A stretch of DNA of 64,000 nt from Clostridia bacterium (GTDB lineage: Bacteria; Bacillota; Clostridia; Oscillospirales; CAG-272). The stretch spans positions 64,985 through 128,984 of the forward strand of contig JAGBIF010000019.1 of assembly GCA_017935065.1 (NCBI GenBank), given 5' to 3'. The notes below the pieces were generated by a model that was given only the letters and a program-made list of their open reading frames with translations, searched no databases and was not told the DNA's origin. Below are positions 8,492-37,495 of this stretch, piece after piece. Position numbers and translations under genes: made by a program. The stretch's first letter is position 1. Every line of letters starts with the position of its first letter.

Positions 8492-8523
8492 GTGCGCTCG
8501 CTTTGCGGGCGCATTTTTATTTT
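8492..8523 (+). terminator. Intrinsic terminator-like hairpin inside the 5' leader of the LRR gene (possible attenuator)
   Basis: A ~10-bp GC-rich stem (gtgcgctcgc ttt gcgggcgcat) is followed by ttttatttt. It sits between the promoter (8361) and the RBS (8551). Confidence 0.6.
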
Positions 8524-8562
8524 GCGCCTTTGATAAGATATTTTATTAAAGGAGAAAAGAGA

Positions 8563-20873: not shown

Positions 20874-21244
20874 TACATTTGGGTATGAAAGTTTCTCATA
20901 CCCATAAGGTATTTTTGCACATATTTATGATTTTTGCTATCCCTATTAAGACTACCGTCCGCTCTATTGTGCAACTTGTACAAACGGTCGGCATTCGCGC
21001 ACGGATTAAGCGAAAAAATATTTTAAAAAAATGCTAAAAAACGCAAATTTTCATATAACCTTTAACAAATTTCTATTGATTTTTCAGCCTTCCCTTACAT
21101 TTTTTCATCACTCCCCCGCCCTTTTTCTTCCTTTTTATTATATATAGGTTTTTTATATAAGCGACAGAGTATTATATATGCTAATTCAAGCTTCGGCGTG
21201 TGAATATACAGCACAAATACGGTATAAAAAATGCCTACCGACAG

Positions 21245-21280
21245 AAAAAGGACAGAGAATGTGAAAAACACTCTCTGTCC
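21245..21280 (-). terminator. Rho-independent terminator ending the carbohydrate-ABC-like locus
   Basis: Stem ggacagaga / tctctgtcc; on the minus strand it is followed by tttttct. Confidence 0.7.
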
Positions 21281-21338
21281 CCTTTGTCCTGTAGGCACTG
21301 CGTCCAAGGACGCAAATGCGATTGGTGAATTTGTCCGA

Positions 21339-22391
21339 TTATCCGACGATACCCGAACGCTCGATACCCTGAACGAGGTATCTCTGGCAGAAAAGGTACA
21401 TTATTACCAGAGGTAATATGATAAGAATTCCTGCCGTGTTCTGAATAACGTTAGAATAAATATCCCATCCTGCCAAAGCGCTGTACTGCTCAAGCGTGTC
21501 GGGAATGTTTCTATAGATGTCAGGCATCATATAGAACTTCTCTATGTCGTCAATCCAGAAGAGCGAGGTATAGAACTGGTCGGTCCACTGCCACGAGAAT
21601 GAGAACAGGAATATTGTAATCATCATCGGAATAGACAGCGGAAGAATAATCTGGAAGAAGGTGCGGTAAACACCCGAGCCGTCAACGTACGCCGACTCCT
21701 CAAGCTCATCGGGAACGCCCTTGAAGAACTGTCTCATAAGGTAGATATAAAGACCGTTCTTAAACGCGAGTCCGCAAAGCGATATGAGGAACAGCGGCCA
21801 GAAGGAATCGGTAAGCTCAAGCGTCGAGCCAAAGATAAGCTCAATGATACCCTTCATATTCCACGACTGAACCGTAAGAAGGTCGAAGCGAGTAAAATGC
21901 TGAGTAAAGGCGAGCTGAAGCGTCTTGTGAGGAATAATCATGCTGAATACGACGGCACCCATTATAAGAGTGTTGCCCTTAAACTTGAACTTTGCAAGTC
22001 CGTAGCCGATAAGGCAGGCAACGAGCGTCTGTATCAGCGCGCACATAAGAGCTACGAGCGCGGTGTGCCAAAGAGCCTCAAAGTAATGATTCTCTATAAT
22101 AATGTACTTATAGGTATCAAGCGTGAAGTTCTTGGGAATGAGCGAAACCGTCGCGTCAAGCACGTCCTCTCTCGTCATAAACGAGCCCGCTATTCTTGCG
22201 AAGAAGGGATAAAGTATAACGTACGATACACCGAGCATAAGAATAAATCTGAAGATATTTACGATAACCTTGATCCAGGTGTTGAAGGTCTTGACCTTGC
22301 TGAGAAGTCTTTCCTTTAAGCTGATCTTGCCCTCGTAATCAACTCGGATCCTATTCTTGCTTTCTTTAATTACAGGTCTGTTTGCATCCAT
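21339..22391 (-). CDS. Carbohydrate ABC transporter permease (MalG-like) with a long N-terminal extension
   Basis: The start at MDANRPV follows the RBS aagggggg. EAA loop ESAYVDGSGVYRTFFQIILPLSIP. 350 aa. Confidence 0.8.
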   Translation of the reverse strand: MDANRPVIKESKNRIRVDYEGKISLKERLLSKVKTFNTWIKVIVNIFRFILMLGVSYVILYPFFARIAGSFMTREDVLDATVSLIPKNFTLDTYKYIIIENHYFEALWHTALVALMCALIQTLVACLIGYGLAKFKFKGNTLIMGAVVFSMIIPHKTLQLAFTQHFTRFDLLTVQSWNMKGIIELIFGSTLELTDSFWPLFLISLCGLAFKNGLYIYLMRQFFKGVPDELEESAYVDGSGVYRTFFQIILPLSIPMMITIFLFSFSWQWTDQFYTSLFWIDDIEKFYMMPDIYRNIPDTLEQYSALAGWDIYSNVIQNTAGILIILPLVIMYLFCQRYLVQGIERSGIVG

Positions 22392-22404
22392 ACTGTCACC
22401 CCCC

Positions 22405-23466
22405 TTAATCCTTTCTCTGGTAGAAGATGAACGTGGATACAATACCCGCAACCGCCGCTATAATAAGTATAATGACGATGAAGTATATCCAGTACATCGC
22501 AGTAGCATAGTAAGGTCTGTTGGTATATACGCCCTGAATGAATTTCATCGTTACATTCTCGGTTCTCGTAAAGGCGTCTATGACCGTGTAAACCGCGTTA
22601 ACCAAAATCATCGGGGATATCATCGGGAAGGTAATCTTCCAGAAGGTCTCCCATCCCGTTGCGCCCTCAATCTGGCACGCCTCGTAAATTGCGGGCGATA
22701 TCGACTGAAGACCTGCGAGGAATATAAGCATCTGTACACCCGAATAGTTGATGATGTTATAGACGTTATTAACAAGCTCAACAACGTATGTAACAAGCTC
22801 GCCGCCGATTTCCATCGTAGCAAACAGTCTCTCAATATCAAGCGTTGATACTATTCCCGCGCCTGCACTTGAGCCTGTACCGTCGTTAATACCACCTCCT
22901 GATGAGCTGGTAACCGCGTCTTGCGCATTGATAGACTCCATAAGTCCCGTAGCAATAATAACGGGAACGAAGAATATCGCACGGAATACGGCACGGCCAA
23001 GCATCTTCTGGTTCAGGACTACCGCGATAAAGAGTGAGAATACTATTACCGCGGGAACCTCGAATATAAGCTGCTGAATACCCTCAAACAGGCTCACGAC
23101 GAAGCCCTTGGAGTCGGTAAACGCGCTTATATAGTGCTTAAAGTTGTTCCACTCGATCCAGGAAACCGCGTTTCCGTTTTCATAGCCCTGCTTAAGGTCA
23201 CCGAGTGAAAACCAAATAGAGTCAAGAAGTATCGGAATATAAATAAGTATTACACCGAGAATAAAGGGCAAGGTAAAGACATAGCCTGCGCGCGCACGCT
23301 TGGAATCAAGCGAAACTCTCTTGCGCTTGGTCCTTAGCAGGCCCGTCTTGGAATCTATTACCGCCGCATCATTCAGGTCGGCGGGCGTAACATACGCCTC
23401 GCCTGCCTGGGTGTCAGCTACCGCCTCGGAATTATCTTCCGCAGCAGTCAAAATCTTTTCATCCAT
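22405..23466 (-). CDS. Carbohydrate ABC transporter permease (MalF-like) with an acidic N-terminal extension and a Gly/Ser-rich loop
   Basis: 353 aa. EAA loop EACQIEGATGWETFWKITFPMISP and loop SSSGGGINDGTGSSAGAG. Confidence 0.8.
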   Translation of the reverse strand: MDEKILTAAEDNSEAVADTQAGEAYVTPADLNDAAVIDSKTGLLRTKRKRVSLDSKRARAGYVFTLPFILGVILIYIPILLDSIWFSLGDLKQGYENGNAVSWIEWNNFKHYISAFTDSKGFVVSLFEGIQQLIFEVPAVIVFSLFIAVVLNQKMLGRAVFRAIFFVPVIIATGLMESINAQDAVTSSSGGGINDGTGSSAGAGIVSTLDIERLFATMEIGGELVTYVVELVNNVYNIINYSGVQMLIFLAGLQSISPAIYEACQIEGATGWETFWKITFPMISPMILVNAVYTVIDAFTRTENVTMKFIQGVYTNRPYYATAMYWIYFIVIILIIAAVAGIVSTFIFYQRKD

Positions 23467-23486
23467 TTTGTGCTTTACCTCCTTTA

Positions 23487-26400
23487 TCAGTCAAGTCTGA
23501 CACAGCCGTACTTTTCCAGCGTGTAGACGTTACCGTCACCGAGATTTACGTTAACCGAATAGATATTGTAGTTAAGAATAAATCTTACGGTATCGGTGCC
23601 ATTGGAATAGGTAACCAGAACGATATTGTTGATATCGCTGGTATAATCGGTATGCTCGTAGTTCTCGTCGGTGCCGAGCGAGTCGGTGATGTAGTTGTAC
23701 TTTGAGGTGTACTCTATCGTGCCGAAGCTGATAACACCGTCGGGATTCGGGCTTGCGGGTGCGGGATACTCAGCACGGTACTTATCGTAAACCGCGTTGA
23801 TTGCAGCGACGAACGAGGTATCGTTGTCAAGCTCCTCACGGCTCTTGTTAAGCACGGAGGTAAGCTGATTCATAAGAGCATCGGTGTCAAACACGAAGCT
23901 AATCTCGATACCGGGTGCCGCGCCGCCTGCCTGAAGGGCTGCAAACTTATCGCTTATAGCCTTGGCAATCTGTGCGTCGAGAAGCTCTACTATCTCATCC
24001 TTAAGCGCTATATAGTTTGCGGCGGTCTCGCCAGCGTCAATCACACGCTCGCCTATTACGAGTCTGTGGTCTACGATCTTGTAGTCCTGAAGGTCGCCGA
24101 TATAGCTATTAAGAAGATTATAGGTCTCAATGATGCTGTCATACCAGGTATTGTAGTCTACTCCGTAGTACTCGGAAAGAAGATGATCGTCCTTAAGGTA
24201 TGCCGAGTTCTGCGCGCAAAGCACGTAGTAGGGATTTGCACCGCTTTCAACAGAGCGAAGAATATCGTACATAGGAGTACCCGAGTAGTTGAGAGGAGTA
24301 CCCGCGTAGCTCTTGCTGCCGTGAAGCACCATTCCTACGAAGGGAACGGGATATGAGGAATATCTGTAATGGCTCGAATCAATGGCAGCGTCAAGAATGT
24401 GGCTTGCATACTTAAGCGTGTAAGCATTACCCTTGTCTACCATAATGTCAAGTCCCGCCTCGTTCTTCATCTTATTAAGAACTGATACGACGTACGCCTC
24501 GGAATCGGTACGGTTTACAGGCTCATCCTCGTCAAAGTTAGAGTTAAGGTCAGAGCCCATGGTCGATACGGATATACCGCTCGCCTCAAACTTAGAATAC
24601 TTCTTCTGGAATTTGGTGTAAATATCGTCAAGTGAAACAGAGTTTACAACGAGCGAATAATAGGTCACGTAATCCTGAAGCACCGAGTTGTATACCTGCT
24701 TGGATGCGTAACGGTTATCAACCATTCGGGATACGTTTCCGCGTATGGAAATACCGTCGAACATCTCGGTATTGTTGATATACATAAAGTCAAAGTCGGG
24801 ATATACGCCAAAGCTTGTGCCTGCCGTCTGTGAAATCTTCTTTGCTTCCTCGACGAGCTTCTTGAACTCGCGCTTGCCGCCGCATGCCTTTTCCCATCTT
24901 ACCTTGGTAGGATAGGTGAAGTACATACCGCCGTTTGAGAAGCCGCTGAGACGGAAGTTGATATTGGTAATCTTTTCCGCCGTAGCCGCAAGAGCTCTAT
25001 AATTCTCTGCAGTCTGAGCATAGGTTTCCTTAAGAGAATCCTCGTTTGCCTCCTCGGAAAGCTTATCGTACTCCTCCGCCTTCTTTAAGAAGGTAGACGC
25101 ATTATCGGATATCTCGTTATACATTCTGAGTATATCCTCAAAGGTCGTAAGCGGAATAGTCTGCGTTACGGGGAACGAAAGGATCTTAGTGGTGATATCC
25201 ATTGCGCCGAGCGCCTCTATATAAAGAGGAATATCATCGCTTACCTGTTCAAGCGCGGTAAGAACGCCTGTACCGTAGAGGTAATCGCGATAGCACGCTG
25301 CCATTCCCACGTAGGAGGAGAGGTAGCAGCCGCCCTCGGGATATGCGGTGGAAGCTATCTTCTCATCCGCGAGCATCGTAATTCTGGTTACGTAGGACTC
25401 GTTGTATCTTGAATCGGATACGATGGTATAGCTGTTCTGCGAGCCAACCGACGCACCCGCAGTCTCGGTAAGGTCAAAGATATCCGAGGGGTACGGGGAG
25501 AAGAGGCTGTATGCGTTTGCGTACTTATAGGCACCGCCGCCGCCGACGAACTCAAGATATGCAAGCGACGCACCCTCCTCGAGGATGGCGAAGTAGCCGT
25601 TCTTAACCGTATCTACTCCGTAGAGTGACTTGGTAAGCGGGTTTGCGGCGGTATCGGCGACCACACCGTATACGGGCATCGTGATCTGCGCGCGGTATGC
25701 CTGGGTTGAAATAAGGTTAGAGTAGCAGTAATCAAGTCCGTAGATGGACACCTTGGGCATCTTGATCTGCATCGACTTGAATTCCTCGAATTCGACAACG
25801 GTTCCGCTTCCGTCAGGGAAGAAGATGTATCCGTCGTTATCAAGGTAGCCTGCTCCGAAGAACTGAATGGGTACGATTGAGAGAAGCGTGTAAACCGTCT
25901 CGTCAAAGGAAATCGAGCTTGCGGGAAGTCTTACCGAAAGAGTTCCGTCCGCGTTCAAGCTATACTCAAGAGCGCATCTGAATACGGGCTTTTGCTCGGT
26001 CTTGCTTACATATCCGCACTCCTTCTCATGCTCAAGCATCATTGAGAAGGTATAAGTGGGACAGTATCTCTGGAACATAATCGAGTCGACTCTCATCTCA
26101 CTCGTCGAAACTCCGTCATATACGTACATAGGTGCGTGATAGAGCTCCGAATCCTCGTCATAAATCTCGAGCTTCTCATCACCAACGGGGGTGTAGAAGT
26201 CCTTGATAATTCCGAGATATGCGTTTGAATCGGTTCTGTCGGTTTCCTCGTATACTCTGGGATTCTTAAGCGCGTACGCGGTAACCATACTCATTATATC
26301 GTTACGGAGAGTGTGTATAGCCTTGTACTCGGGCGAGTTACGGTCGGTCAGAAGCTTCTGATATTCCGACTGCATTGCCTGAAGGTACCTGGAGATAATG

Positions 26401-27143
26401 CCGCTGTCAAGGCATCCGTAGGAATAGGGCTTATACTTATCGTTATCAAAGATAGAGAAGTTAAAGCTTGAGTTGAGAGGTCCGCAGTACTGGTTAAGCA
26501 ATGCTTCGATATCGTTAAGCATAGGAACGAGGATAAGCGCCTCGTAGTCCTCCGCGAGAATTCTACCGGGAAGCAGGAACCTTGAGGTCGTATCACCGAG
26601 GGTGTAGCTTACTCTGATTCCGCCGTTGATGAAGCTCGTGGATATCTGAGCACGGTCTGCCGCCCACTCGTTCGAGTTAAGCGACGGCTCCTCGTAGTTG
26701 GTCGAGTTGAGCAGATAATTGATATTAATCTGGCTCATAAGCAGACGTCTGTTGTCTATCGAAACCGTCGAGGTAGAGTTAACGTTGTAGGGATTAGAGG
26801 TAAGTATCTGTCCCGTTACGTTGTTCACGTAATACATAATACCGTTGTATCGGTTTACGTATATTGAATACCTGCCGTCGGGAGCGTGTACCGAATCAAG
26901 GTATCCGTCGGACAAATCTCCGTCTCCGTTGGGGTCAAGCTCGTACAGGAGCATTTCCTCAGCGGAGGAGAAGTTGTAATCAAGAGTTTTCGTCGAAATT
27001 TCCTTAATCTGTTCAGCGCTCAGCGCCGCGGTCGAGGCATTTAACTCGTAGGCTGCGTTTGCGGAGGTAGGAACAACCGCTATAAGCGTGGTGAAAAGCA
27101 TCACCAGCACCAGCGCAGACGATAAAAGCTTTTTAATTTTCAT
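23487..27143 (-). CDS. Large secreted protein of unknown function (resembles my recollection of DUF5696-type proteins)
   Basis: 1218 aa with signal peptide MKIKKLLSSALVLVMLFTTLIAVVPTSANA. Motifs GYIFFPDGSGTVVEF, RLSGFSNGGMYF and VPFVGMVLHGSKSYAGTPLNY. No catalytic family was recognised. Confidence 0.6.
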   Translation of the reverse strand: MKIKKLLSSALVLVMLFTTLIAVVPTSANAAYELNASTAALSAEQIKEISTKTLDYNFSSAEEMLLYELDPNGDGDLSDGYLDSVHAPDGRYSIYVNRYNGIMYYVNNVTGQILTSNPYNVNSTSTVSIDNRRLLMSQININYLLNSTNYEEPSLNSNEWAADRAQISTSFINGGIRVSYTLGDTTSRFLLPGRILAEDYEALILVPMLNDIEALLNQYCGPLNSSFNFSIFDNDKYKPYSYGCLDSGIISRYLQAMQSEYQKLLTDRNSPEYKAIHTLRNDIMSMVTAYALKNPRVYEETDRTDSNAYLGIIKDFYTPVGDEKLEIYDEDSELYHAPMYVYDGVSTSEMRVDSIMFQRYCPTYTFSMMLEHEKECGYVSKTEQKPVFRCALEYSLNADGTLSVRLPASSISFDETVYTLLSIVPIQFFGAGYLDNDGYIFFPDGSGTVVEFEEFKSMQIKMPKVSIYGLDYCYSNLISTQAYRAQITMPVYGVVADTAANPLTKSLYGVDTVKNGYFAILEEGASLAYLEFVGGGGAYKYANAYSLFSPYPSDIFDLTETAGASVGSQNSYTIVSDSRYNESYVTRITMLADEKIASTAYPEGGCYLSSYVGMAACYRDYLYGTGVLTALEQVSDDIPLYIEALGAMDITTKILSFPVTQTIPLTTFEDILRMYNEISDNASTFLKKAEEYDKLSEEANEDSLKETYAQTAENYRALAATAEKITNINFRLSGFSNGGMYFTYPTKVRWEKACGGKREFKKLVEEAKKISQTAGTSFGVYPDFDFMYINNTEMFDGISIRGNVSRMVDNRYASKQVYNSVLQDYVTYYSLVVNSVSLDDIYTKFQKKYSKFEASGISVSTMGSDLNSNFDEDEPVNRTDSEAYVVSVLNKMKNEAGLDIMVDKGNAYTLKYASHILDAAIDSSHYRYSSYPVPFVGMVLHGSKSYAGTPLNYSGTPMYDILRSVESGANPYYVLCAQNSAYLKDDHLLSEYYGVDYNTWYDSIIETYNLLNSYIGDLQDYKIVDHRLVIGERVIDAGETAANYIALKDEIVELLDAQIAKAISDKFAALQAGGAAPGIEISFVFDTDALMNQLTSVLNKSREELDNDTSFVAAINAVYDKYRAEYPAPASPNPDGVISFGTIEYTSKYNYITDSLGTDENYEHTDYTSDINNIVLVTYSNGTDTVRFILNYNIYSVNVNLGDGNVYTLEKYGCVRLD

Positions 27144-27167
27144 TATTTAATTTCCTCCTCTGCACTG

Positions 27168-29357
27168 TTATAGTCGGTTTCCTATTTCCGAAATTATTGC
27201 CGATACGAAGGTTACCATCTTAACCACGAGGTTCGAGAACAGAATTGCTACGAACATAATGACAACCATCGCCGCGATAGTTCCGACTACTGTAAGAATG
27301 TTCTTGCTGAGCGAATAGTCGTGAGTTACGAGCGTTCCGAAGAACAGAAGGAATGCAACCCAGATATATCCGAGCGTAACAAGAAGATTTACCATTGAGC
27401 CCTCGCCTACCGTCATTACGTTTGTAAGAATGGTGGAGATGATTATAAGCAGGGGCAGCGGTGCCAGCGAATAGGTCGTGGCAACGTAAATGTCCTTGAA
27501 GCTTCCCTCACCGTCAAAGAGCGTCGTCAGGCACCAGTTACCAACGCACCAGAGCATAACGGGAACGGTTATGGAAAGTATCTGAACTATAATAGTTGAG
27601 TAATTCTCACGGGGGTTGAAGGTATATCCCTGTCCTACCGCCTGATAGAAGAAGGCGAGGATGGTGATACCCATAATCGTTGAGCCTGCTCTGACAGAGC
27701 CGCGCTGCTCGTGCTTCAGATCCCAGAAGCCGTCGAACGGGTGCAGCCAGAGATGGAAGGCGTAAATAAGCTCCTCAACGTAGGTCTTTCTGCCAACCTT
27801 GAGCGAGGTCAGCTTGTTCTTCTTCTTTGCCCAGCCGAAGAACTTGAGCATTCCTACGATAAGTGCTATCACACCGACGAGAATAACTATAAGCACCCAA
27901 GAGCCGATAACGTTCTTACGGATAGCCGCGAACGCCTTGGAATAGGTCTCGGTCTCGTACGCGCCCTTAAGCATCTCCATAGCCTCCTCGTATTTCTCCT
28001 GGCTATAAAGCGCTTTACCTATACCGATATAGGCAAGGTCAAAGTTATTGTTTCTGGTAAGAACGTCCTGCCAATACAGAATAGCCTCGGAATAAAGATG
28101 CTCGTTCTGATTGTGAAGAGCGCTCATAATAGTGTCACAGTACTCGGTCGGCGAATAGACGGTAATCTTGAAGCCGCCCGCGGTCTCATTCGCGTTATCA
28201 AGGGTAAGAAGATAGGTTATACCGTCTACCTCATGGTAGGTGATCGCCACGAGATCCTCACCGTTACCGAGCTGGTCACCTATATCACCGAAGGCGAAAA
28301 GAAGGTTTCCGTTCTGGTCATAGGTAAATATTCTCGAGCGCTTGCTGTCAAGGATAGACCAGGAATTCTCTCTTCCTATTGCAACGTCGATTATCTTCGA
28401 GGCGCCCTTGGAGTCGGACATCGTGCTGACCATTACCTCTCCGCCAGGATCGAAGAAGCCGTTACGCTTCATAATCTCAGCGCCTGCGGAATTGAGCTTC
28501 TTGATAGGCGAATAATCGGAATTCTTTGATTTGATAGCGCCTATCTGGAGGTCAGGCTTAATACCGTCGGTGGTAGCGTATACGAAGCCGTCGCTGTCAA
28601 CCGTGATATTGTTGTAGGCGATAGAAACGTTACGTCCCGACTGCTCTCTCTGCTCCTTGGTCTGGAAGCGTCTCCAGATTATATCAATGATGGAGTAATC
28701 TGCCTTCTGCGCACCGATAAAGCCCGTGAAGTCGCCCTCCTTTGACATAACTATAACACCCTCGTTACATTCGGTCGAGGTGATGAAAAGTCTGCCGTAA
28801 AGGTCAACCGCGATAGCCATAGGCTTGAAGGAGTTCTCACGAAGAAGCGCACTCTTAGGCTCGTCAAGAGTTCTTACATAGTTAAAGTCTCTGTCAAATA
28901 CTACGATACGCATATTGAGAGTATCACAGATATAGATAAGACTCTGCTCTGTAGAGCCGCCAAGCGAGGAGGTTACGAAAACGCCCTGAGGCTTGTTGAA
29001 GGTCTGCCAATTACCGCTCTTGTCGGTAAATCCGTCTATAATGTGGATACAGGAGTAATACTTGTTAAGCACGACGATACGGTTGTTATCCTTATCCGCA
29101 ATGTAGACGTTTGCGGCATCGTCGGTTACGATATCGGTAGCGCCCTTAAGAGCCTTTCCGCCGAACTTCTCCTGAGTGATACCCATAGGAACCGAGGTAA
29201 GCGACTGAGACGCGTCATACGCCGCGGGTGACTTAAGAGGCTCACCGTCTATCGAATAGGTGTAGGTCTCGTAGGATTCAAACGCAAGAGCGTTTACCGT
29301 TCCGAAGAGCATTACGAGAACAAGGGTGAGGATAAAAATCTTTGAAAGCTTTTTCAT
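27168..29357 (-). CDS. Signal peptide + NHL-type beta-propeller + TPR + C-terminal Yip1-like polytopic membrane domain
   Basis: 729 aa. NHL-like repeats (VYIADKDNNRIVVLNK, IYICDTLNMRIVVFDRDFNY, LFITSTECNEGVIVMSK). TPR-like region (AYIGIGKALYSQEKYEEAMEML). About 5 TM helices in the last ~250 aa. Confidence 0.65.
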   Translation of the reverse strand: MKKLSKIFILTLVLVMLFGTVNALAFESYETYTYSIDGEPLKSPAAYDASQSLTSVPMGITQEKFGGKALKGATDIVTDDAANVYIADKDNNRIVVLNKYYSCIHIIDGFTDKSGNWQTFNKPQGVFVTSSLGGSTEQSLIYICDTLNMRIVVFDRDFNYVRTLDEPKSALLRENSFKPMAIAVDLYGRLFITSTECNEGVIVMSKEGDFTGFIGAQKADYSIIDIIWRRFQTKEQREQSGRNVSIAYNNITVDSDGFVYATTDGIKPDLQIGAIKSKNSDYSPIKKLNSAGAEIMKRNGFFDPGGEVMVSTMSDSKGASKIIDVAIGRENSWSILDSKRSRIFTYDQNGNLLFAFGDIGDQLGNGEDLVAITYHEVDGITYLLTLDNANETAGGFKITVYSPTEYCDTIMSALHNQNEHLYSEAILYWQDVLTRNNNFDLAYIGIGKALYSQEKYEEAMEMLKGAYETETYSKAFAAIRKNVIGSWVLIVILVGVIALIVGMLKFFGWAKKKNKLTSLKVGRKTYVEELIYAFHLWLHPFDGFWDLKHEQRGSVRAGSTIMGITILAFFYQAVGQGYTFNPRENYSTIIVQILSITVPVMLWCVGNWCLTTLFDGEGSFKDIYVATTYSLAPLPLLIIISTILTNVMTVGEGSMVNLLVTLGYIWVAFLLFFGTLVTHDYSLSKNILTVVGTIAAMVVIMFVAILFSNLVVKMVTFVSAIISEIGNRL

Positions 29358-29372
29358 TTTGCATTATCCTCC

Positions 29373-30257
29373 TTAATCCTTCATTCCCGAGGAGCCCATC
29401 GTCTCGATGATCTGGCTCTGGTTAAGCACGAATACCAGGATAGGCACGAGCATCATTACGACAGTTGCCGCAGCGCCTGCGCCCGAACGGGCTATACCGC
29501 CTGATACGATTTGCTGAATTGCGTAGTTGAAGGTCTTGAGCTCCTCCGAGTGGATGTAGATCGAGGATCCTGAGTTCCAAAGAGTCTTGAAGCACTCGAT
29601 AATAAGCGTCAGCCACGCGGGCTTAACCATAGGCATCGCGATTATAAGGTAGGTTCTGAACTCGCTTGCACCGTCAAGACGTGCGGATTCAAGAACCGTA
29701 TCGGGCACCGAGGTCTCCATAAACTGCTTCATGAGGTAAAGACCTATAGTAGTAGCCATTGAGGGTACTATAATAGAAAGGTAGGTATCAATCCATCCGA
29801 ATGCGGAAAGAATGATGAAGTGCGTTACCTGGTTAACCGTGGAGTGGAACATCAGCGACGCAACTATGAGCTGGAAGATTGCGTTTCTTCCGGGGAAACG
29901 AAGCTTTGCAAGCGAGTATGCCGCCATTGACGCAAAGATAAGGTTTCCGAGAGTACCGCATATCGTGATGAATACGGTATTGAATATGTACCTTGAGAAG
30001 GGCACCCACGAGTCACTCATAAGGGTGAACAGGTCGGAGAAGTTCTCAAAGGTGGGGCTCATAACGTAAAACTTCGGGGGGAACATAAACAGCTCGTCAA
30101 GCGGCTTCAAGGACTGAATTACAACGTAATACATAGGAATGAACATAAACAGTCCCATTATCGTGAGCAGTATTGTTATACCCGTATCTCCTCCTGCCGA
30201 ACGGTTGAGAACGACACGGTGGCCTCTGGTTCTTAATTTCTTTGACATACTACTCAC
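29373..30257 (-). CDS. Carbohydrate ABC transporter permease (MalG-like)
   Basis: 294 aa. EAA loop ESARLDGASEFRTYLIIAMPMVKP. Confidence 0.85.
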   Translation of the reverse strand: MSSMSKKLRTRGHRVVLNRSAGGDTGITILLTIMGLFMFIPMYYVVIQSLKPLDELFMFPPKFYVMSPTFENFSDLFTLMSDSWVPFSRYIFNTVFITICGTLGNLIFASMAAYSLAKLRFPGRNAIFQLIVASLMFHSTVNQVTHFIILSAFGWIDTYLSIIVPSMATTIGLYLMKQFMETSVPDTVLESARLDGASEFRTYLIIAMPMVKPAWLTLIIECFKTLWNSGSSIYIHSEELKTFNYAIQQIVSGGIARSGAGAAATVVMMLVPILVFVLNQSQIIETMGSSGMKD

Positions 30258-31197
30258 CTACCTTTGAAAGTGCCTTCTTAATGATTACGTTACAGGAGTA
30301 CATAATCACGAACAGCACTACGGCGATTGCCGATGCGTAACCGATTTCATAACGCTGTCCACCGTAGTCATTCAGGTGGTGCATTATTGTGTGCGCGGCA
30401 TAGTCGACCGAGGGGAATCCGCAGAGCGCGTCAACGACAGCACCGAAGCCGAACGAGTTAGTGATAGCAAGCACGGCACCGAACATAAGCTGAGGACGCA
30501 TCGTAGGAAGGGTTATGTACCAAAGCTCCTGCCAACGGTTCTTAATGCCGTCAACGGCAGCAGCCTCGTACATTGAGCGGTCGATAGTCTGGAAGCCCGC
30601 GATGAACGAAAGGAATGCGGTACCGAGCGAGGTCCAAAGCGCAACCACGATACAAAGAGGCATAACGTAGTCGGCATTCTGGAACCAGAGTATCGGCTCG
30701 CTGATAATTCCAAGGTCCATAAGCGTTGCGTTCGCCCATCCGTAAGAGTCCGACGAGAACAGTGTCTTCCAAATAAGGTAAACCTGTCCTGAAATCGAGG
30801 GGGCGTAGAATATAAGAGTTACAACCGAACGAAGCTTCGGAGGAAGCTCGTTGATGAACCACGCGATAAGCAGCGAAAGAAGGTAGGATACGGGACCTGT
30901 TATCGCTGCGAATATAAGCGTGTTCTGGCAAGCCAGAAGGAATATATCATCATTCAGGAACAGACGGATAAAGTTTGAAATACCAAGCCAGTTGGGCATT
31001 TCAAGCATGTTAAAGTCCGTAAGGCTCAGAATCATCGAAAGAAGAACCGGCAATATAGTAAATATAATGAAGAGAAGGAAGAACGGAGCGAGCATAAAGT
31101 ACGCCGTCTTATTGTTCTTCATCTCCTGCCATGTCCAGCGTAATTTCGAGACTTCTGAACGTTTTACAGGACGATTTGTCTCTGGGGTCTGTGACAT
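30250..31197 (-). CDS. Carbohydrate ABC transporter permease (MalF-like)
   Basis: 315 aa. EAA loop EAAAVDGIKNRWQELWYITLPTMRP. Confidence 0.85.
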   Translation of the reverse strand: MSQTPETNRPVKRSEVSKLRWTWQEMKNNKTAYFMLAPFFLLFIIFTILPVLLSMILSLTDFNMLEMPNWLGISNFIRLFLNDDIFLLACQNTLIFAAITGPVSYLLSLLIAWFINELPPKLRSVVTLIFYAPSISGQVYLIWKTLFSSDSYGWANATLMDLGIISEPILWFQNADYVMPLCIVVALWTSLGTAFLSFIAGFQTIDRSMYEAAAVDGIKNRWQELWYITLPTMRPQLMFGAVLAITNSFGFGAVVDALCGFPSVDYAAHTIMHHLNDYGGQRYEIGYASAIAVVLFVIMYSCNVIIKKALSKVGE

Positions 31198-31224
31198 TAC
31201 AATTTCTCCTTATCTCATAATGTT

Positions 31225-34200
31225 CTACTGCGTGACAGTAGTGGGAGGCTCAAGCTGGCCCTCCTCGAGAACGGGAAGGTCGAACTCAATTCTCTTACGC
31301 TCGATCTCGTCGTTGATAGCGTCAATGTATCCGCTGAGCGCCTCAACCGCATCTGCTCCGTCGTTAACAGCCGCAAGGAATGCGAACTCGGTATATCTTG
31401 CGATAATGTAAGAGCCAGGATAGTTAACTATAGAGGAAAGATGGTTCATCTGAAGCTCGATTGCCTCATACTCGCTAGCCGTCCAGGACATATTCTTAAG
31501 AGCCTTGACGTTAGCCGATTCGTATTTAGCGGAAGGACCGATGAGCGCTACCATTCTGTTACCGTAGTTGGACTGAACGCTCTCACTGGTCTGCCACTGA
31601 AGGAACTGCCATGCAGCAAGAAGATTGTCACAGCCGTTAAGAATAACCGTGGCACCTATTCCTGCAAGAGAGTCATAGTTGTAGTAGCCCGTCTGCTCGT
31701 TCTTGTAGCCGGGAAGCGACGTGAACTCCCACATACCCGCGATTTCGGTCGCGTAAACGACGAGCTGGTTGTAAATTGTTGCGTAGTCACCGATGATAAG
31801 AGGCATCTCACCCGTTCTGAAACGGTTTGCCGCATCAAAGGTTACAGGGAAGGAATAATCGCTGTAAAGTCGGCAGACATAGTCAAACGCCTCCTTTGCG
31901 ACGTTGGTATCAAGACCTATCTTGGCACCCGCATAATCGGGGTTGTCCGTGAACTTCCACATATTGCCGCCCATCTGATAAATCATAAAGTTAAGGGCAG
32001 AGCCGTAGGTAAGTCCTATCGACATATTGTTGGTCTGAAGAACGGGAAGAAGCGAAAGCAGCTCGCCCCAGGTCTCAGGAACCTCCTGACCGAGGTTTGC
32101 GAGAACGTCCATACGGTAGAACATCATAGCGAAGGACATCGTCTGAGGAATACCGTAGCACTTGTTACGGAGAATAACCGTATCCATTGCCGCGGGAACG
32201 AAGTTATCTGCGATTACCTCGTCATAGGTCAGCGATTTGAAGGTAAGCTTACCGTCGGCGCACTCCTCGCCCTTATAGGTCTTGCTGGTCGTATATACCT
32301 TTTCAATATTGTCGCCGTTCTTTACTTCCTTACAGTAGGTAAAGTAGTTGTTAGAGAACAGCTCGTTTGCGCTGACTGCATCCCTGTCAAGTGCGGATGC
32401 GGGCGCGCCCGTGTTAGGATTTATCTTAATTCCGTCAAGGTAGGGATCGTTACCGCTGACACCGTAAACTGCCTTACGAATAGCGTAGTTGATAACGTCG
32501 GTGGAACCAAGTCCTATATATACATCAGGTCCTTTACCCGAAAGGATAGAGGGAAGAAGCGTTCCTCCCGTAACGAGCTTAAGCGTTACGGCAACACCCG
32601 TGTTCTCGGTGAAGCTTCCCTTTGCGTCAATCATAGTACGCCAGATCTGCGACTGGTCGCGTCCCGTTGCAAGCCATACGTCAATCGTGACGGTGTCCTC
32701 GTCGGGAATCGTGGTAAGTCCCATCTGATCGTATTCGGTAAAGAATGAATAGAAGAAGGAGGATAATTCGAAGCCAATGGATCTGAAGAAGCCTGCGTCT
32801 CCGCGAGGAAGAACCTTTTCGTCCTTGTCTGCAGGACAAATCGAGATAGAGTCAACTATCATCGAGCTGCGCTTGGAGTTGTTTATCCAGGTACCGAGCG
32901 TACCGAGATAGGACTTAAGGGTGGTCATATTAGCCGCGATAGCGTCGCCGTACTCCTCACCCATCGTGTTAAGAAGAAGCGCTATCGTATGAAGCGTGGT
33001 GATATGAGAGCCTGTGGTACCGCAAAGCGTCTCAAACTCCTGCTTAACCGCCTCAAGCTCGATAGCCTCCTCAAGAAGGCCTCTTACAACCTCGGGCATA
33101 ATGCCGTAGAAGTCGTAGTCACGGTATTCGTCAGGATCGTTACCCGTGAGCTGAAGTATTCTTAAATAATGAGAGTTTATTTTATCAAGAGAGTTCTGTA
33201 CTCTGCGGATGAGGTCCTTAAGCGAGCCGAGCGAGCATTCAAGGTAGAGTGTGTACTCAACCCCCTCCTCGAAATAGAACTCAAAGGGTCTTTCCCTTCT
33301 TTCGATATCAACCACGTTACCGTCAAGATCGGTGTACTCGCCGTCGGAATTAACGCGGTAGCCCGTGATATCAACCTCGTTGCCGTCCTTATCGAGATAT
33401 ATGTAATCTCCGACGAAGGTCGACTGCCAAGCCTTATCGTAGTTGAACTGCGCGTCGTACGCCTCCTCAAACGGTGCGGTGGGCGTTCCGTCGGAAAGAC
33501 CGTACTTGCCGCCCGCAAGCTTTACGGTACGGCAGATATACATACCCTGAAGGGCATCCTGCTTGTAACGCATACCGAGCTTATAGAGTCCCGTGCTGTT
33601 AACCGTAAACTTGTACGCCGCCCACTGACCTACGGTATTATAGCTGTTCTCACCGATAACGTTGTAAAGCTGAGCGTTTGAGACCGAGGGGAAGGTCGAC
33701 GCGGAGGTGTTATCGTTGGTAGCCGCAACAGAGGAGTCGGATACAAAGTCGGGGAACTCCGCCTGAATATGGGTGATTTCTCCGTCCTTTGCCGTCTCGT
33801 AGCCGTTAGCCTTGTACTCGGCAAGCACATCGTTGTAGCTCCTAAGAGTAGAAGCCTCATCGTCCGCGGGAACAAGCTCAATGGACTTTACGATAACGGG
33901 ATCACGCTCTGCCGCGAGGGTGATGGTTCTGTAACCGCTCTCGAGGTAGAAGCTGAAGTAATCGTGATAGTAGCCCGTGGTATCCTGGCAGTAGTATACT
34001 CCCCACTTGGAAAGCTGGGTGATGTCAGGTGCCATCGAGTTACCGTTAATATCCTGGTGGATCTGGTATACCTCAACCGTCTCAATGCCGTCCTCAATCT
34101 TAACTACCTTCTTGAAGTAGCCAGGATTTTCTCCGCCCCGCTCGGTGTAGTATTCGACATCGTAGAAATCCTTCTCTGAGGATGCCTTGGATGTGGACGA

Positions 34201-34749
34201 GAGAAGCGTCTCGTACTTCCAGTATTTTGTGAGGTTGAGATGTCCTGCCTCGGCGAAGGGTATCTCTCCGTTAATGAAGAGCTTTCTCTCAATCGAGCTT
34301 ATACTGCTCTCGGAAGTCTCACAGTTGAAGTAGGTTATGCGGATGTAGTAGCGTCCTGCCGCACTCTCGGGAATAACCACACTCCAGGTAGCCTCGCCCG
34401 TCGAGGGAAGATAAAGCGAATTCTCCGCATTGTCTCCGAACTGCGCCCAGGCATCGGGCTTTTCCATCATAGAGTTTTGACACTCTGTGCTTTCTGATAC
34501 CTTTACTGCGCTGCCCGTGACCGTGGAGTTGTCTATGACTATCGTCGTAAGCCCCTCCTTGGATTCGGGAATCGTCTCAAGATACTCAGCGTAGGTCGTA
34601 GTACCGACCAGCTGCTGCATTTCCTTGAGCGATGCGGCGGTTGTCTCGGGCTTATTAACACCCGCGGAAGCACCGACCACAACAACGCTGAACAAGGTTG
34701 TCACGCAAAGAATCAAACAGATGATTCTTTGGAACACTGACTTTTTCAT
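31225..34749 (-). CDS. Giant extracellular solute-binding protein (1174 aa): N-terminal beta-sandwich-like modules plus a C-terminal family-1 SBP domain
   Basis: The start MKKSVFQRIICLILCVTTLFSVVVVGASAG follows the RBS gaaggag and lies downstream of the promoter at 34820-34848. The SBP-like part begins around IDVWLATGRDQSQIWRTMID. The N-terminal half contains two CBM-like segments (GRYYIRITYFNCE, GLYKLGMRYKQDA). Confidence 0.7.
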   Translation of the reverse strand: MKKSVFQRIICLILCVTTLFSVVVVGASAGVNKPETTAASLKEMQQLVGTTTYAEYLETIPESKEGLTTIVIDNSTVTGSAVKVSESTECQNSMMEKPDAWAQFGDNAENSLYLPSTGEATWSVVIPESAAGRYYIRITYFNCETSESSISSIERKLFINGEIPFAEAGHLNLTKYWKYETLLSSTSKASSEKDFYDVEYYTERGGENPGYFKKVVKIEDGIETVEVYQIHQDINGNSMAPDITQLSKWGVYYCQDTTGYYHDYFSFYLESGYRTITLAAERDPVIVKSIELVPADDEASTLRSYNDVLAEYKANGYETAKDGEITHIQAEFPDFVSDSSVAATNDNTSASTFPSVSNAQLYNVIGENSYNTVGQWAAYKFTVNSTGLYKLGMRYKQDALQGMYICRTVKLAGGKYGLSDGTPTAPFEEAYDAQFNYDKAWQSTFVGDYIYLDKDGNEVDITGYRVNSDGEYTDLDGNVVDIERRERPFEFYFEEGVEYTLYLECSLGSLKDLIRRVQNSLDKINSHYLRILQLTGNDPDEYRDYDFYGIMPEVVRGLLEEAIELEAVKQEFETLCGTTGSHITTLHTIALLLNTMGEEYGDAIAANMTTLKSYLGTLGTWINNSKRSSMIVDSISICPADKDEKVLPRGDAGFFRSIGFELSSFFYSFFTEYDQMGLTTIPDEDTVTIDVWLATGRDQSQIWRTMIDAKGSFTENTGVAVTLKLVTGGTLLPSILSGKGPDVYIGLGSTDVINYAIRKAVYGVSGNDPYLDGIKINPNTGAPASALDRDAVSANELFSNNYFTYCKEVKNGDNIEKVYTTSKTYKGEECADGKLTFKSLTYDEVIADNFVPAAMDTVILRNKCYGIPQTMSFAMMFYRMDVLANLGQEVPETWGELLSLLPVLQTNNMSIGLTYGSALNFMIYQMGGNMWKFTDNPDYAGAKIGLDTNVAKEAFDYVCRLYSDYSFPVTFDAANRFRTGEMPLIIGDYATIYNQLVVYATEIAGMWEFTSLPGYKNEQTGYYNYDSLAGIGATVILNGCDNLLAAWQFLQWQTSESVQSNYGNRMVALIGPSAKYESANVKALKNMSWTASEYEAIELQMNHLSSIVNYPGSYIIARYTEFAFLAAVNDGADAVEALSGYIDAINDEIERKRIEFDLPVLEEGQLEPPTTVTQ

Positions 34750-34819
34750 GAATCGTTCTCCTTCAAAATATCTTTTATTTGCACGCGTATAAATAATATG
34801 CGAGCCTTTTACGAAGAAA

Positions 34820-34848
34820 ATTATAGCACAAGCGAAAATAAAAGTCAA
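34820..34848 (-). promoter_or_regulatory. Near-consensus sigma-A promoter with extended -10 for the SBP locus
   Basis: The minus strand reads TTGACT-tttattttcgcttgtgc(17)-TATAAT, with TGc immediately before the -10. Confidence 0.65.
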
Positions 34849-35197
34849 GATTTGGTTTTTCACGCAAGCATTATAAATTCAGGTACGCACAGGCAAAACA
34901 TTGAATTTAAAATATTAAAACGGTTTTGCGAGGCTCGCATTTCAAAAAGAGAAAAAGCAGATTTGTTGGGGAAGTAAATTTCTTTTACCAAAATATTCGC
35001 TTCAATCCTTGGTTTTTCGCTATAATTTGTTAAAATGTAAGCTCTATTTACTTTCTCGCCGTTGAACATGACAAAAATTCCTCAAAAAAACGCCGTCTTA
35101 TAATACTTGTAAGGTTTGCACAAATTATGAATAATAATTTCTACATGAGTTTTTTGCGTTTTTTTGCTCCGTTCGGCAAAATCACCGAGACGGGACT

Positions 35198-35243
35198 AAA
35201 AAAAGGGACAGCGGCACGAGGCAAGCACTCGCTCCGTTGTTCC
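35198..35243 (-). terminator. Putative terminator downstream of apbE
   Basis: Imperfect GC-rich hairpin (ggaacaacgg...ccgctgtccc on the minus strand) followed by a U7 run. Confidence 0.5.
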
Positions 35244-35314
35244 TTTTTCAGTGCGCGACAAGAGAAGAAGGTGCTCTTTTCCGCGCCGTAAAATGAATGG
35301 CTTCTTCTTTAAGT

Positions 35315-36438: not shown

Positions 36439-37431
36439 TTATTTGAAAAGCTTGTTCGCAGATTTTACGAAATCGCTGACGTATATAGTACAGCCTGCTG
36501 AAATGATCTCGTCGTTGCCCTTACCCGTATTGCTGATAAGAGACGGTATGCCGTCCTTGCCAAGACCGACGAGCTCGTTAGCAAACACATCCGCCTGCTC
36601 ATACCACTCAAGTCTTGCATTGCCGTATTTCTTCATATTATAGTCATCGCCAAGAGCTCGCTTTGACTTGCTCGGCTCGTTCTTTACGGGTGAGCCCGCA
36701 AGAGTAAACTTAACGTCGGTATTGATAGCATCTATCGTAGCCGCGGTTATCCTTTCACCAGAGACGGTAGCAGCCGTTGCGGTGAGAGCAACCTGAACCT
36801 TGCCGTCACCCTCCGAAGAGGCATCCTTGCTATCGCCCGCGGACTGAGTTGCGACGATACCGAGACGAATCTCGTCCTCCCCGTCGGCATCCGATGCCTT
36901 AAGGTTAGAAAACGCCTCGTTGATAGCCTTTACGAAATCCGTAACGGTAATAGTGCAACCCGCCTCAATTATTTCATCGGTGCCCTTACCGCTGTCGGTA
37001 ACAAGTGCCGCGATCTCCTGAGCAGACTTACCGATTACCTTTTGCTCAAAGGCATCGCACTGAAGATACCATTCGGTCTTGCCGATATTGCTCATTCCGT
37101 AGGCATTTCCCTTCTCGCCCTTGGTCATAAGCTCGCTGCCCGCAACGACCTTGCCCTCGCTTGTAAACGATGCCGTGGCATCCAGCGCGTCGATTTCTAT
37201 ATCAAGCACGCGATTATCCTTATCTACAAGCAGCGCGCACACGGTATAGCTTATTTTAGCCGAGCCTGCCTTATCCGCCGTAGCATCGGCATAGCTTCCG
37301 ACCGAGGCGTATATTCCGAGACCTATAGAGTTGCCGCTCGGCGCAAAGATCAGCTGTGAGGTGAGGCTTGCCGCCGCAAGTAAAACGGCAAAAAGCAGCG
37401 CCAGAGTAAGCAATTTCTTTGAATTTAGCAT
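36439..37431 (-). CDS. Membrane-anchored extracytoplasmic protein with two FMN_bind-like repeats carrying an AGCT motif
   Basis: The start at MLNSKKLL follows GGAG at a 6-nt spacing. Two ~150-aa repeats end in GKGTDEIIEAGCTITVTDFVKAINEAF and GKGNDEIISAGCTIYVSDFVKSANKLF, which resemble the canonical FMN_bind ending (D..SGAT.TS). The gene is adjacent to apbE. Confidence 0.55.
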   Translation of the reverse strand: MLNSKKLLTLALLFAVLLAAASLTSQLIFAPSGNSIGLGIYASVGSYADATADKAGSAKISYTVCALLVDKDNRVLDIEIDALDATASFTSEGKVVAGSELMTKGEKGNAYGMSNIGKTEWYLQCDAFEQKVIGKSAQEIAALVTDSGKGTDEIIEAGCTITVTDFVKAINEAFSNLKASDADGEDEIRLGIVATQSAGDSKDASSEGDGKVQVALTATAATVSGERITAATIDAINTDVKFTLAGSPVKNEPSKSKRALGDDYNMKKYGNARLEWYEQADVFANELVGLGKDGIPSLISNTGKGNDEIISAGCTIYVSDFVKSANKLFK

Positions 37432-37495
37432 ATATTTCTCCATTCCGTCACAGAGGTGACATTATAAGGATTTATGGATTTTCGGTAAATATGAA

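Follow-up and report, generated by a model that had tools for sequence, protein, structure and literature searches.

A stretch of 64,000 nucleotides (nt) from Clostridia bacterium (GenBank assembly GCA_017935065.1, contig JAGBIF010000019.1, positions 64,985 to 128,984 of the forward strand), referred to here as the window, carries seven co-oriented open reading frames (ORFs) on its minus strand at 21339-34749, as placed by the ORF listing. In the direction of transcription, these encode a giant solute-binding protein (SBP), a first pair of ATP-binding cassette (ABC) permeases (P1a and P1b), a membrane protein that joins a putative NHL-type propeller to a Yip1 domain (NHL/Yip1), a large secreted protein of the DUF5696 family, and a second pair of permeases (P2a and P2b). 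The seven genes constitute one operon that can be co-transcribed, and this operon, which probably encodes an importer of oligosaccharides, is the subject of the present analysis. Neighboring genes overlap by up to 8 nt or are separated by up to 27 nt. The operon is preceded by a sigma-70-type promoter at 34820-34848 on the minus strand, comprising TTGACT, 17 nt, and an extended -10 element (TG-n-TATAAT); in a consensus scan, 11 of 12 positions agree with the consensus in addition to the extended -10 TG, and the -35, TG, and -10 elements are identical in 9 aligned orthologous loci from other species. On the opposite side, an intrinsic terminator at 21245-21283 (-), consisting of a GC-rich hairpin and a subsequent U-run, escaped the consensus scan and was recognized from its sequence and fold energy: the region 21236-21292 (-) contains a 17-base-pair GC-rich hairpin followed by UUUUUCU, with an energy of -28.3 kcal/mol and a z-score of -6.6, and 0 of 200 shuffled sequences folded equally well. 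An earlier first-pass annotation, made from the sequence, had described a promoter and a terminator bracketing seven co-oriented genes with very short gaps, and the promoter scan, the terminator fold, and the ORF coordinates, with no gap above 27 nt, agree with that description.

The leader of the operon, downstream of the invariant promoter, contains a small, conserved, GC-rich stem-loop at 34784-34802 (-), which is not considered an attenuator because it has no U-run and which may be an mRNA-stabilizing hairpin or an operator. It recurs with differing loop sequences in nine species, namely the window and loci L001, L003, L004, L011, L017, L023, L059, and L080 of the orthologous set L001-L080 described below, and a palindrome at 34775-34796 overlaps it. 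Its consensus fold is weak, with 4 pairs and a covariation too low for a structured RNA to be called at this position. No cre (CcpA) consensus site is present at the operon promoter, and an Rfam scan of the window returned no match, i.e., no riboswitch or leader family. The intergenic region between the ApbE terminator and the operon promoter (34864-35314; 450 nt, AT-rich) likewise contains no Rfam match and no notable ORF. On one side, the operon adjoins a Liv-type ABC system for amino acids, which has a perfect promoter of its own; on the other side lie ApbE/Rnf genes. Neither flank in the window contains a glycoside hydrolase (GH), a regulator, or an MsmK/UgpC-type ATPase; furthermore, no orthologue of a MalK/MsmK/UgpC-type ATPase occurs within the 64-kb window, where the best tblastn matches are approximately 30%-identical ATPases of other ABC systems. 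The lack of a hydrolase, an ATPase, and a regulator, initially described for the operon itself, extends in this manner to the flanks, although the absence of a hydrolase applies to sequence comparisons only, the DUF5696 model having a GH-like fold as described below. It is not unusual for the ATPase and the regulator to be missing: Firmicutes commonly share MsmK-type ATPases that are encoded at unlinked sites, and distant cassettes have an adjoining UgpC-type ATPase as well as regulators.

The first gene of the operon encodes the SBP (31225-34749, minus strand; 1174 amino acids [aa]) and starts with the ATG at 34749, which is preceded by a GGAG Shine-Dalgarno sequence. A longer ORF with a GTG at 34863 was excluded as the start, since it begins upstream of the promoter -10 element, which ends at 34820. 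In the AlphaFold2 (AF2) model (mean predicted local distance difference test [pLDDT] score, 78.3), the protein comprises a signal or anchor helix (aa 1-29), two β-sandwiches (approximately aa 110-295 and 326-506), a four-helix bundle (aa 508-626), and a MalE-like domain (aa 688-1155), and its hydropathy profile displays a single N-terminal signal or anchor segment. The Pfam family SBP_bac_1 matches only the C-terminal third (53 bits, aa 850-1059). The top Foldseek matches are oligosaccharide SBPs with target-normalized template-modeling scores (TM-scores) of 0.75-0.79, the first being 5ysf (0.76), and a sequence search of the PDB returned Lin1841 at 1.6e-5. Both the SBP_bac_1 and the Foldseek matches indicate an extracellular MalE-like (cluster B) binding protein of the kind that characterizes CUT1 importers. 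No carbohydrate-binding module (CBM) family could be assigned to the N-terminal domains, the full-length Foldseek matches being dominated by MalE-like structures.

The four permeases fall into two pairs of MalF/MalG-type membrane subunits, as is characteristic of CUT1 importers, and an EAA-type motif is readable in each of the four translations. P1a (30250-31197, minus strand; 315 aa) is MalF/UgpA-like and matches Pfam BPD_transp_1 and NCBIfam UgpA (3.5e-16), and P1b (29373-30257, minus strand; 294 aa) is MalG/UgpE-like, matching NCBIfam UgpE (1e-23), while its BPD_transp_1 score of 21.2 bits lies under the cut-off of 26.4, which the other three permeases exceed. In the second pair, P2a (22405-23466, minus strand; 353 aa) is MalF-like (BPD_transp_1, 8e-10), and P2b (21339-22391, minus strand; 350 aa) is MalG-like with extended loops (BPD_transp_1, 2.3e-11; NCBIfam MalG, 8e-18) and starts with the ATG at 22391, where its orthologues align. 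The atypical extensions ascribed to the second pair in the first-pass annotation are evident from these lengths. P2a has a poorly conserved N-terminal extension of approximately 45 aa, with alignments of orthologues mostly beginning near aa 44-52, and a Gly/Ser-rich external loop. The two pairs have diverged considerably from each other (27% identity between P2a and P1a, 25% between P2b and P1b).

NHL/Yip1 (27168-29357, minus strand; 729 aa) consists of a signal peptide, a putative NHL-type propeller (approximately aa 26-400), a TPR-like stretch (aa 419-466), a transmembrane (TM) helix (aa 483-501), and a multi-TM Yip1 domain (aa 535-703), and the signal peptide, the TM helix, and the Yip1 helices together imply that the propeller faces outward. 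The Yip1 assignment is clear (Pfam PF04893, 51 bits against a cut-off of 28.6, 2.1e-13, aa 535-703), and hydropathy places four to five hydrophobic segments within this stretch. The NHL assignment is borderline in Pfam (one repeat, 21.7-25 bits against a cut-off of 20, with weak SGL and SBBP matches) and is complemented by NCBIfam ScyF-NHL at 1.8e-12. The first-pass description of this protein as an NHL/TPR/Yip1 fusion was correct for its NHL and Yip1 parts, whereas the TPR part is weakly indicated, the ANAPC3 match being weak. In distant relatives, NHL (approximately 490 aa) and Yip1 (approximately 206 aa) are two translationally overlapping genes. In ten of the close relatives (L038, L039, L048, L050, L052, L058, L060, L073, L076, and L077), the match to NHL/Yip1 is broken after approximately residue 60 by approximately 300-830 nt of unmatched coding sequence, which suggests that an additional domain is inserted behind the signal peptide.

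The largest protein of the operon (23487-27143, minus strand; 1218 aa) belongs to the Pfam family DUF5696 (PF18952), as had been suggested in the first-pass annotation: the match scores 390.8 bits against a gathering threshold of 25.6 (E 1.5e-116), and all 31 diverse relatives that were compared also match this family. When 1.84 billion representative proteins were searched with a profile, DUF5696 was represented by 6,628 clusters (counted at 50% identity) at an E-value limit of 1e-3 and by 4,020 at a limit of 1e-30. The protein has a single N-terminal signal or anchor segment according to its hydropathy and is predicted to comprise, in order, a signal peptide, an N-terminal region, a β-rich domain, a (β/α)8-like barrel (approximately aa 611-1030), and a C-terminal β-sandwich (AF2 model; pLDDT 77.6, predicted TM-score 0.70). 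A Foldseek search with this model, proposed earlier as a means of revealing a cryptic GH-like fold, returned ZgGH129 (8rzk) with an E-value of 5.4e-13, a probability of 1.0, and a target-normalized TM-score of 0.59, followed by the GH31 enzyme YicI (8t7z, 3e-5) and then GH13 enzymes. Judged from its model, DUF5696 has a cryptic glycosidase-like fold that resembles retaining α-glycosidase families and that is shared with GH129 (8rzk_A). Comparison of DUF5696 with all PDB chains by sequence and profile yielded noise only and no solved relative, a Pfam scan of its domain segments and of the 31 members at E up to 5 yielded no GH, CBM, or other informative family, and hhalign did not align the DUF5696 profile with Escherichia coli YicI of GH31 (probability 0.2). 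Across the DUF5696 subfamilies, the only invariant acidic residues are D444 (within an FPDGSG motif) and D471 in the β-rich domain before the barrel and E966 in the barrel; R878, N952, and K984 are invariant as well, and this set of polar residues would fit a conserved pocket. The stretch at aa 789-831 (window 24651-24779; FDGIS..GNVSRMVDNRYASKQ) forms a loop that ranks with the most highly conserved parts of the protein in the clade and is modeled with a pLDDT below 50; this loop is a candidate for contact with a partner or for a mobile lid.

When one genome of each GTDB species was scanned, relatives of DUF5696 were found in 281 stretches, and the following statistics refer to the best 80 of these stretches, all of which are from gut metagenome-assembled genomes (MAGs) labeled Clostridia, Eubacteriales, Oscillospiraceae, or Ruminococcus. 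The window itself has a match at 100% identity to a protein of a "Clostridia bacterium" MAG. The order and strand of the seven genes are retained in 80 of 80 loci (tblastn with the seven window proteins), of which 61 are complete and 19, although truncated by a contig end, are collinear, with 0 exceptions. The median identity among orthologues is 90% for P1b, 86% for P1a (across 65 orthologous loci), 67% for P2b, 65% for P2a, 61% for NHL/Yip1, 55% for the SBP, and 44% for DUF5696; at the protein sequence level, the first channel is nearly frozen, and the extracellular parts diverge rapidly. P1a and P1b are 81-99% identical across the species of L001-L080, in which DUF5696 is only 29-88% identical, an unusually strong constraint for ABC permeases. 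The flanks of the 80 loci consist of housekeeping genes, with MnmA, NifU, and NifS upstream and Liv, DAHP synthase, and EPSP synthase downstream, and contain no carbohydrate-active enzyme (CAZyme) or GH and no regulator. In consequence of these housekeeping flanks, the possibility that the window operon is part of a glycan locus conserved in its own clade was rejected. One contig of the set, L041, is labeled "Coriobacteriaceae bacterium" and has a cassette of almost the same layout and identity as those of the Clostridia MAGs L033 and L072; it is likely a mis-binned or mislabeled contig.

The cassette is not limited to the clade of the window. Its order is retained in 12 of 12 distant loci of Lachnospiraceae and Paenibacillaceae at approximately 25% protein identity, the distant set consisting of two plasmids (retrieved by tblastn among annotated plasmids) and ten look-ups of distant homologues; the genera concerned include Butyrivibrio, Acetatifactor, Roseburia, Paenibacillus, and Cohnella. 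Both plasmids are annotated with an SBP of approximately 980 aa, two permeases, NHL/YIP1, DUF5696, and two further permeases, and each of the ten other loci has a seven- or eight-gene core in which NHL and Yip1 are overlapping genes. The co-occurrence of DUF5696, Yip1, and SBP genes, as noted in the first-pass annotation, is in this manner traced to a fixed cassette in all close and distant loci, and the suggested comparison of gene neighborhoods reveals an order conserved across Clostridia and Bacilli. The neighbors of the distant cassettes are conspicuously varied. Butyrivibrio fibrisolvens pNP243 carries GH43, a histidine kinase with a response regulator, and two extra ordinary SBPs, and Paenibacillus cellulosilyticus carries a UgpC-type ATPase immediately upstream of the cassette. 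GH43 is found near the Acetatifactor cassette, LacI with GH113 and GH2 near that of P. alkalitolerans, LacI with GH26 and GH113 near that of P. catalpae, LacI with GH26 in Cohnella, and LacI with two GH53 genes in Roseburia; further distant loci contain GH43, GH35, LacI, and GH42; AraC, GH16, an SBP, and GH3; or GH9 and GH26. GH43 with a histidine kinase and GH26 with GH113 are also among the combinations observed. The combination of a regulator and a CAZyme that defines gram-positive polysaccharide utilization loci (gpPULs) is absent from the window and the 80 orthologous loci and is present in most of the distant ones. Comparative gene content thereby identifies the cassette, in cultured relatives, as the transporter core of glycan-utilization loci with varying glycanases and sugar regulators. 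Since the neighbors differ from locus to locus, the cassette is regarded as a generic transport core reused for different glycans, and the notion of DUF5696 as a linkage-specific enzyme for one polysaccharide is weakened by the variety of neighboring GH families.

On the basis of these observations, the locus is probably best explained as one operon for a self-contained CUT1-type module of oligosaccharide capture and import, with two translocators and three conserved surface accessories. The window variant is the long one, in which insertions have lengthened DUF5696 and the SBP and in which a single gene encodes NHL and Yip1 as a fusion. In the mechanism that we propose, the β-sandwich domains of the SBP would capture glycan chains, and DUF5696 would bind or trim the captured oligosaccharide at the cell surface, being held in place by the NHL/Yip1 scaffold and the extended loops of P2a and P2b. 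The products would pass in through both translocators, which would draw their energy from a common MsmK/UgpC-type ATPase with its gene at another site of the genome, and the seven proteins may form a physical complex. The operon is probably expressed at a high basal level, because it stands alone behind a strong, conserved promoter among housekeeping genes. The uncharacterized machine for capture, processing, and import postulated in the first-pass annotation is supported by the conserved cassette, the likeness of the SBP to oligosaccharide SBPs, and the GH-like fold, and its description of the substrate as large is plausible; the 1218-aa protein was not found to fall into a characterized CAZy family, nor the locus to correspond to a published utilization system.

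Several points weigh against this capture-and-import module. The putative roles of all its members are derived from sequences and models, and their possible physical assembly is suggested by synteny. The window locus has no glycanase or regulator of its own, its apparent link to carbohydrates passing through homology to the distant cassettes. The match of the DUF5696 fold to GH129 is moderate, with a query-normalized TM-score of 0.35 and 7-8% identity, and neither PDB chains nor Pfam tie DUF5696 to any GH family, GH129 included, by sequence or profile. Two of its three invariant acidic residues lie outside the barrel, no canonical catalytic residues could be assigned, and the family alignment contains no invariant Asp at barrel strand 4, the place of the nucleophile in GH13, GH31, and GH129; for these reasons, catalysis by DUF5696 is only putative. 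Furthermore, the enzymes neighboring the cassette in its relatives act mostly on β-linked glycans, whereas the best fold matches of DUF5696 are α-glycosidases.

The reservations regarding catalysis lead to the alternative that has survived best, which we regard as possible, if clearly the lesser option, namely that DUF5696 is a non-catalytic pseudo-glycosidase that would serve in glycan binding or docking, as the binding protein for P2a/P2b, or as a cap or vestibule above the two translocators, with hydrolysis left to the variable GHs or to enzymes elsewhere. Such a role would agree with the apparent lack of a canonical nucleophile and acid-base pair at barrel strands 4 and 6, with acidic residues at the strand ends that vary between subfamilies, and with a cassette that accompanies glycanases for chemically different glycans (GH53, GH26/GH113, GH16 with GH3, and GH43), which favors a generic function, although one fold can serve many substrates, as the large multi-specific families GH5 and GH2 illustrate. 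DUF5696 is always encoded directly upstream of P2a-P2b (in the order SBP-P1a-P1b ... DUF5696-P2a-P2b), and the window operon has no second SBP, as would be expected if DUF5696 acted as the binding protein of the second translocator; however, an additional ordinary SBP is encoded in most distant loci and could act for P2. Against this reading, the three acidic residues as well as R878, N952, and K984 remain invariant at approximately 25% identity, as in an active site.

A second alternative, which appears rather improbable, is that the cassette of the window clade has a housekeeping function that has nothing to do with dietary glycans, for example in recycling or remodeling a polysaccharide of the bacterium's own envelope or in the uptake of a ubiquitous host or microbial compound. 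It draws on the housekeeping genes that flank all 80 loci in place of a GH or a regulator, on a strong promoter that is invariant across species and has no cre site, and on the breadth of 281 species of the group. The identity of P1a and P1b (86-90%), where that of DUF5696 is only 44%, might likewise be expected of a core function, but the same rapid evolution of the extracellular SBP (55%) and DUF5696 (44%) fits diversifying substrate recognition. Moreover, the binding domain resembles oligosaccharide SBPs, and the distant relatives reside in catabolic glycan loci, mostly with sugar-type regulators. The last alternative, a chance adjacency of two ABC importers and two surface proteins, all unrelated and forming no functional unit, is in agreement with permease pairs that are only 25-27% identical and could in principle work separately, but it is effectively refuted by synteny, the same order being kept in every one of the 80 close and the 12 distant loci, in two bacterial classes at approximately 25% identity, with gaps of at most 27 nt, a single promoter, and a single terminator, and it is accordingly given next to no weight.

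Returning to the oligosaccharide capture-and-import module, a bolder version can be formulated, which we advance tentatively and consider doubtful as it stands: the seven proteins would constitute one surface machine and a new ABC importer architecture, in which DUF5696 and NHL/Yip1 are integral and bridge the two translocators and a CBM-bearing SBP, and which would be a functional counterpart, in gram-positive bacteria, of the Bacteroidota SusCD utilisome and a generic core for many glycans, with DUF5696 representing a new CAZy family or a class of transporter-docked pseudo-enzymes.

Two further genes of the window deserve mention. An ORF of 2315 aa at 8503-15450 on the plus strand is made up of BspA-type leucine-rich repeats over nearly its whole length, comprising 19 LRR_5 stretches, and has one N-terminal Listeria-Bacteroides repeat, a composition that marks it as a giant surface or adhesin-like protein. 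An ORF of 334 aa at 36439-37443 on the minus strand, located between ApbE and a gene resembling heptaprenyl diphosphate synthase component I, matches no Pfam family at E-values up to 1e-3.

Firmicutes are major degraders of fiber in the guts of animals and humans, and their capture and import of long oligosaccharides are far less understood than the Sus-type systems of Bacteroidota. The cassette is widespread among Firmicutes of gut and soil, its long form being present in at least 281 GTDB species in addition to the relatives in Lachnospiraceae and Paenibacillaceae, the loci that it serves are directed at mannans, galactans, β-glucans, and GH43 substrates, and two of its protein families have not been assigned a function. 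Its elucidation could define a new family of glycosidases or glycan-handling proteins, could provide the first role of bacterial Yip1 proteins in nutrient uptake, and could improve the annotation of thousands of gut-microbiome loci currently labeled "hypothetical". In the literature library that was searched, there was no paper on DUF5696, PF18952, or the gene combination of the cassette, and a search for Yip1 together with ABC, SBP, NHL, or Paenibacillus retrieved nothing relevant beyond YknW, the sole precedent of a Yip1 protein with an ABC transporter. The kind of system, i.e., ABC sugar importers, is known, and its obligatory extra components and doubled translocator are undescribed; there is a real chance that the cassette represents a new importer architecture together with a new family of glycosidase fold.

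Among known systems, the cassette is closest to the CUT1 ABC sugar importers (MalEFG/MsmEFGK, UgpABCE, and the β-1,2-glucooligosaccharide system of Listeria with Lin1841), with which it shares MalF/MalG pairs with EAA motifs and a MalE-like domain. The shared MsmK/UgpC-type ATPase of these importers is expected here too and adjoins the cassette in Paenibacillus cellulosilyticus. Unlike them, the cassette has two permease pairs per operon, an SBP of 1174 aa with approximately 690 extra N-terminal residues, and obligatory NHL/Yip1 and DUF5696 genes, and no ATPase is encoded in the window. DUF5696 shares a predicted architecture of β-sandwich, (β/α)8 barrel, and C-terminal β domains with GH129 (ZgGH129, a 3,6-anhydro-D-galactosidase, 8rzk), GH31, and GH13, although it differs from GH129 in its 7-8% identity, in the lack of an invariant Asp at strand 4, and in the length of the window protein, which is approximately doubled. 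In the gpPULs of Lachnospiraceae and Paenibacillus, the distant cassettes form the transporter part beside a regulator and GHs, whereas the window locus has neither a regulator nor an annotated hydrolase. In the YknWXYZ system of Bacillus, YknW, a membrane protein with a Yip1 domain, cooperates with the ABC transporter YknXYZ, a MacB-type exporter of a peptide toxin (PMC4887032). Both systems encode a Yip1-family membrane protein with an ABC transporter; however, the cassette transporters are type I importers, and the Yip1 domain comes with a large extracellular NHL propeller, either on the same protein or as a partner. Finally, although the SusC/SusD utilisomes of Bacteroidota have no homology to the cassette and differ in envelope, in all components, and in energy source (TonB there and ATP here), a functional analogy exists between the two, each placing a generic, substrate-agnostic import core beside variable glycanases.

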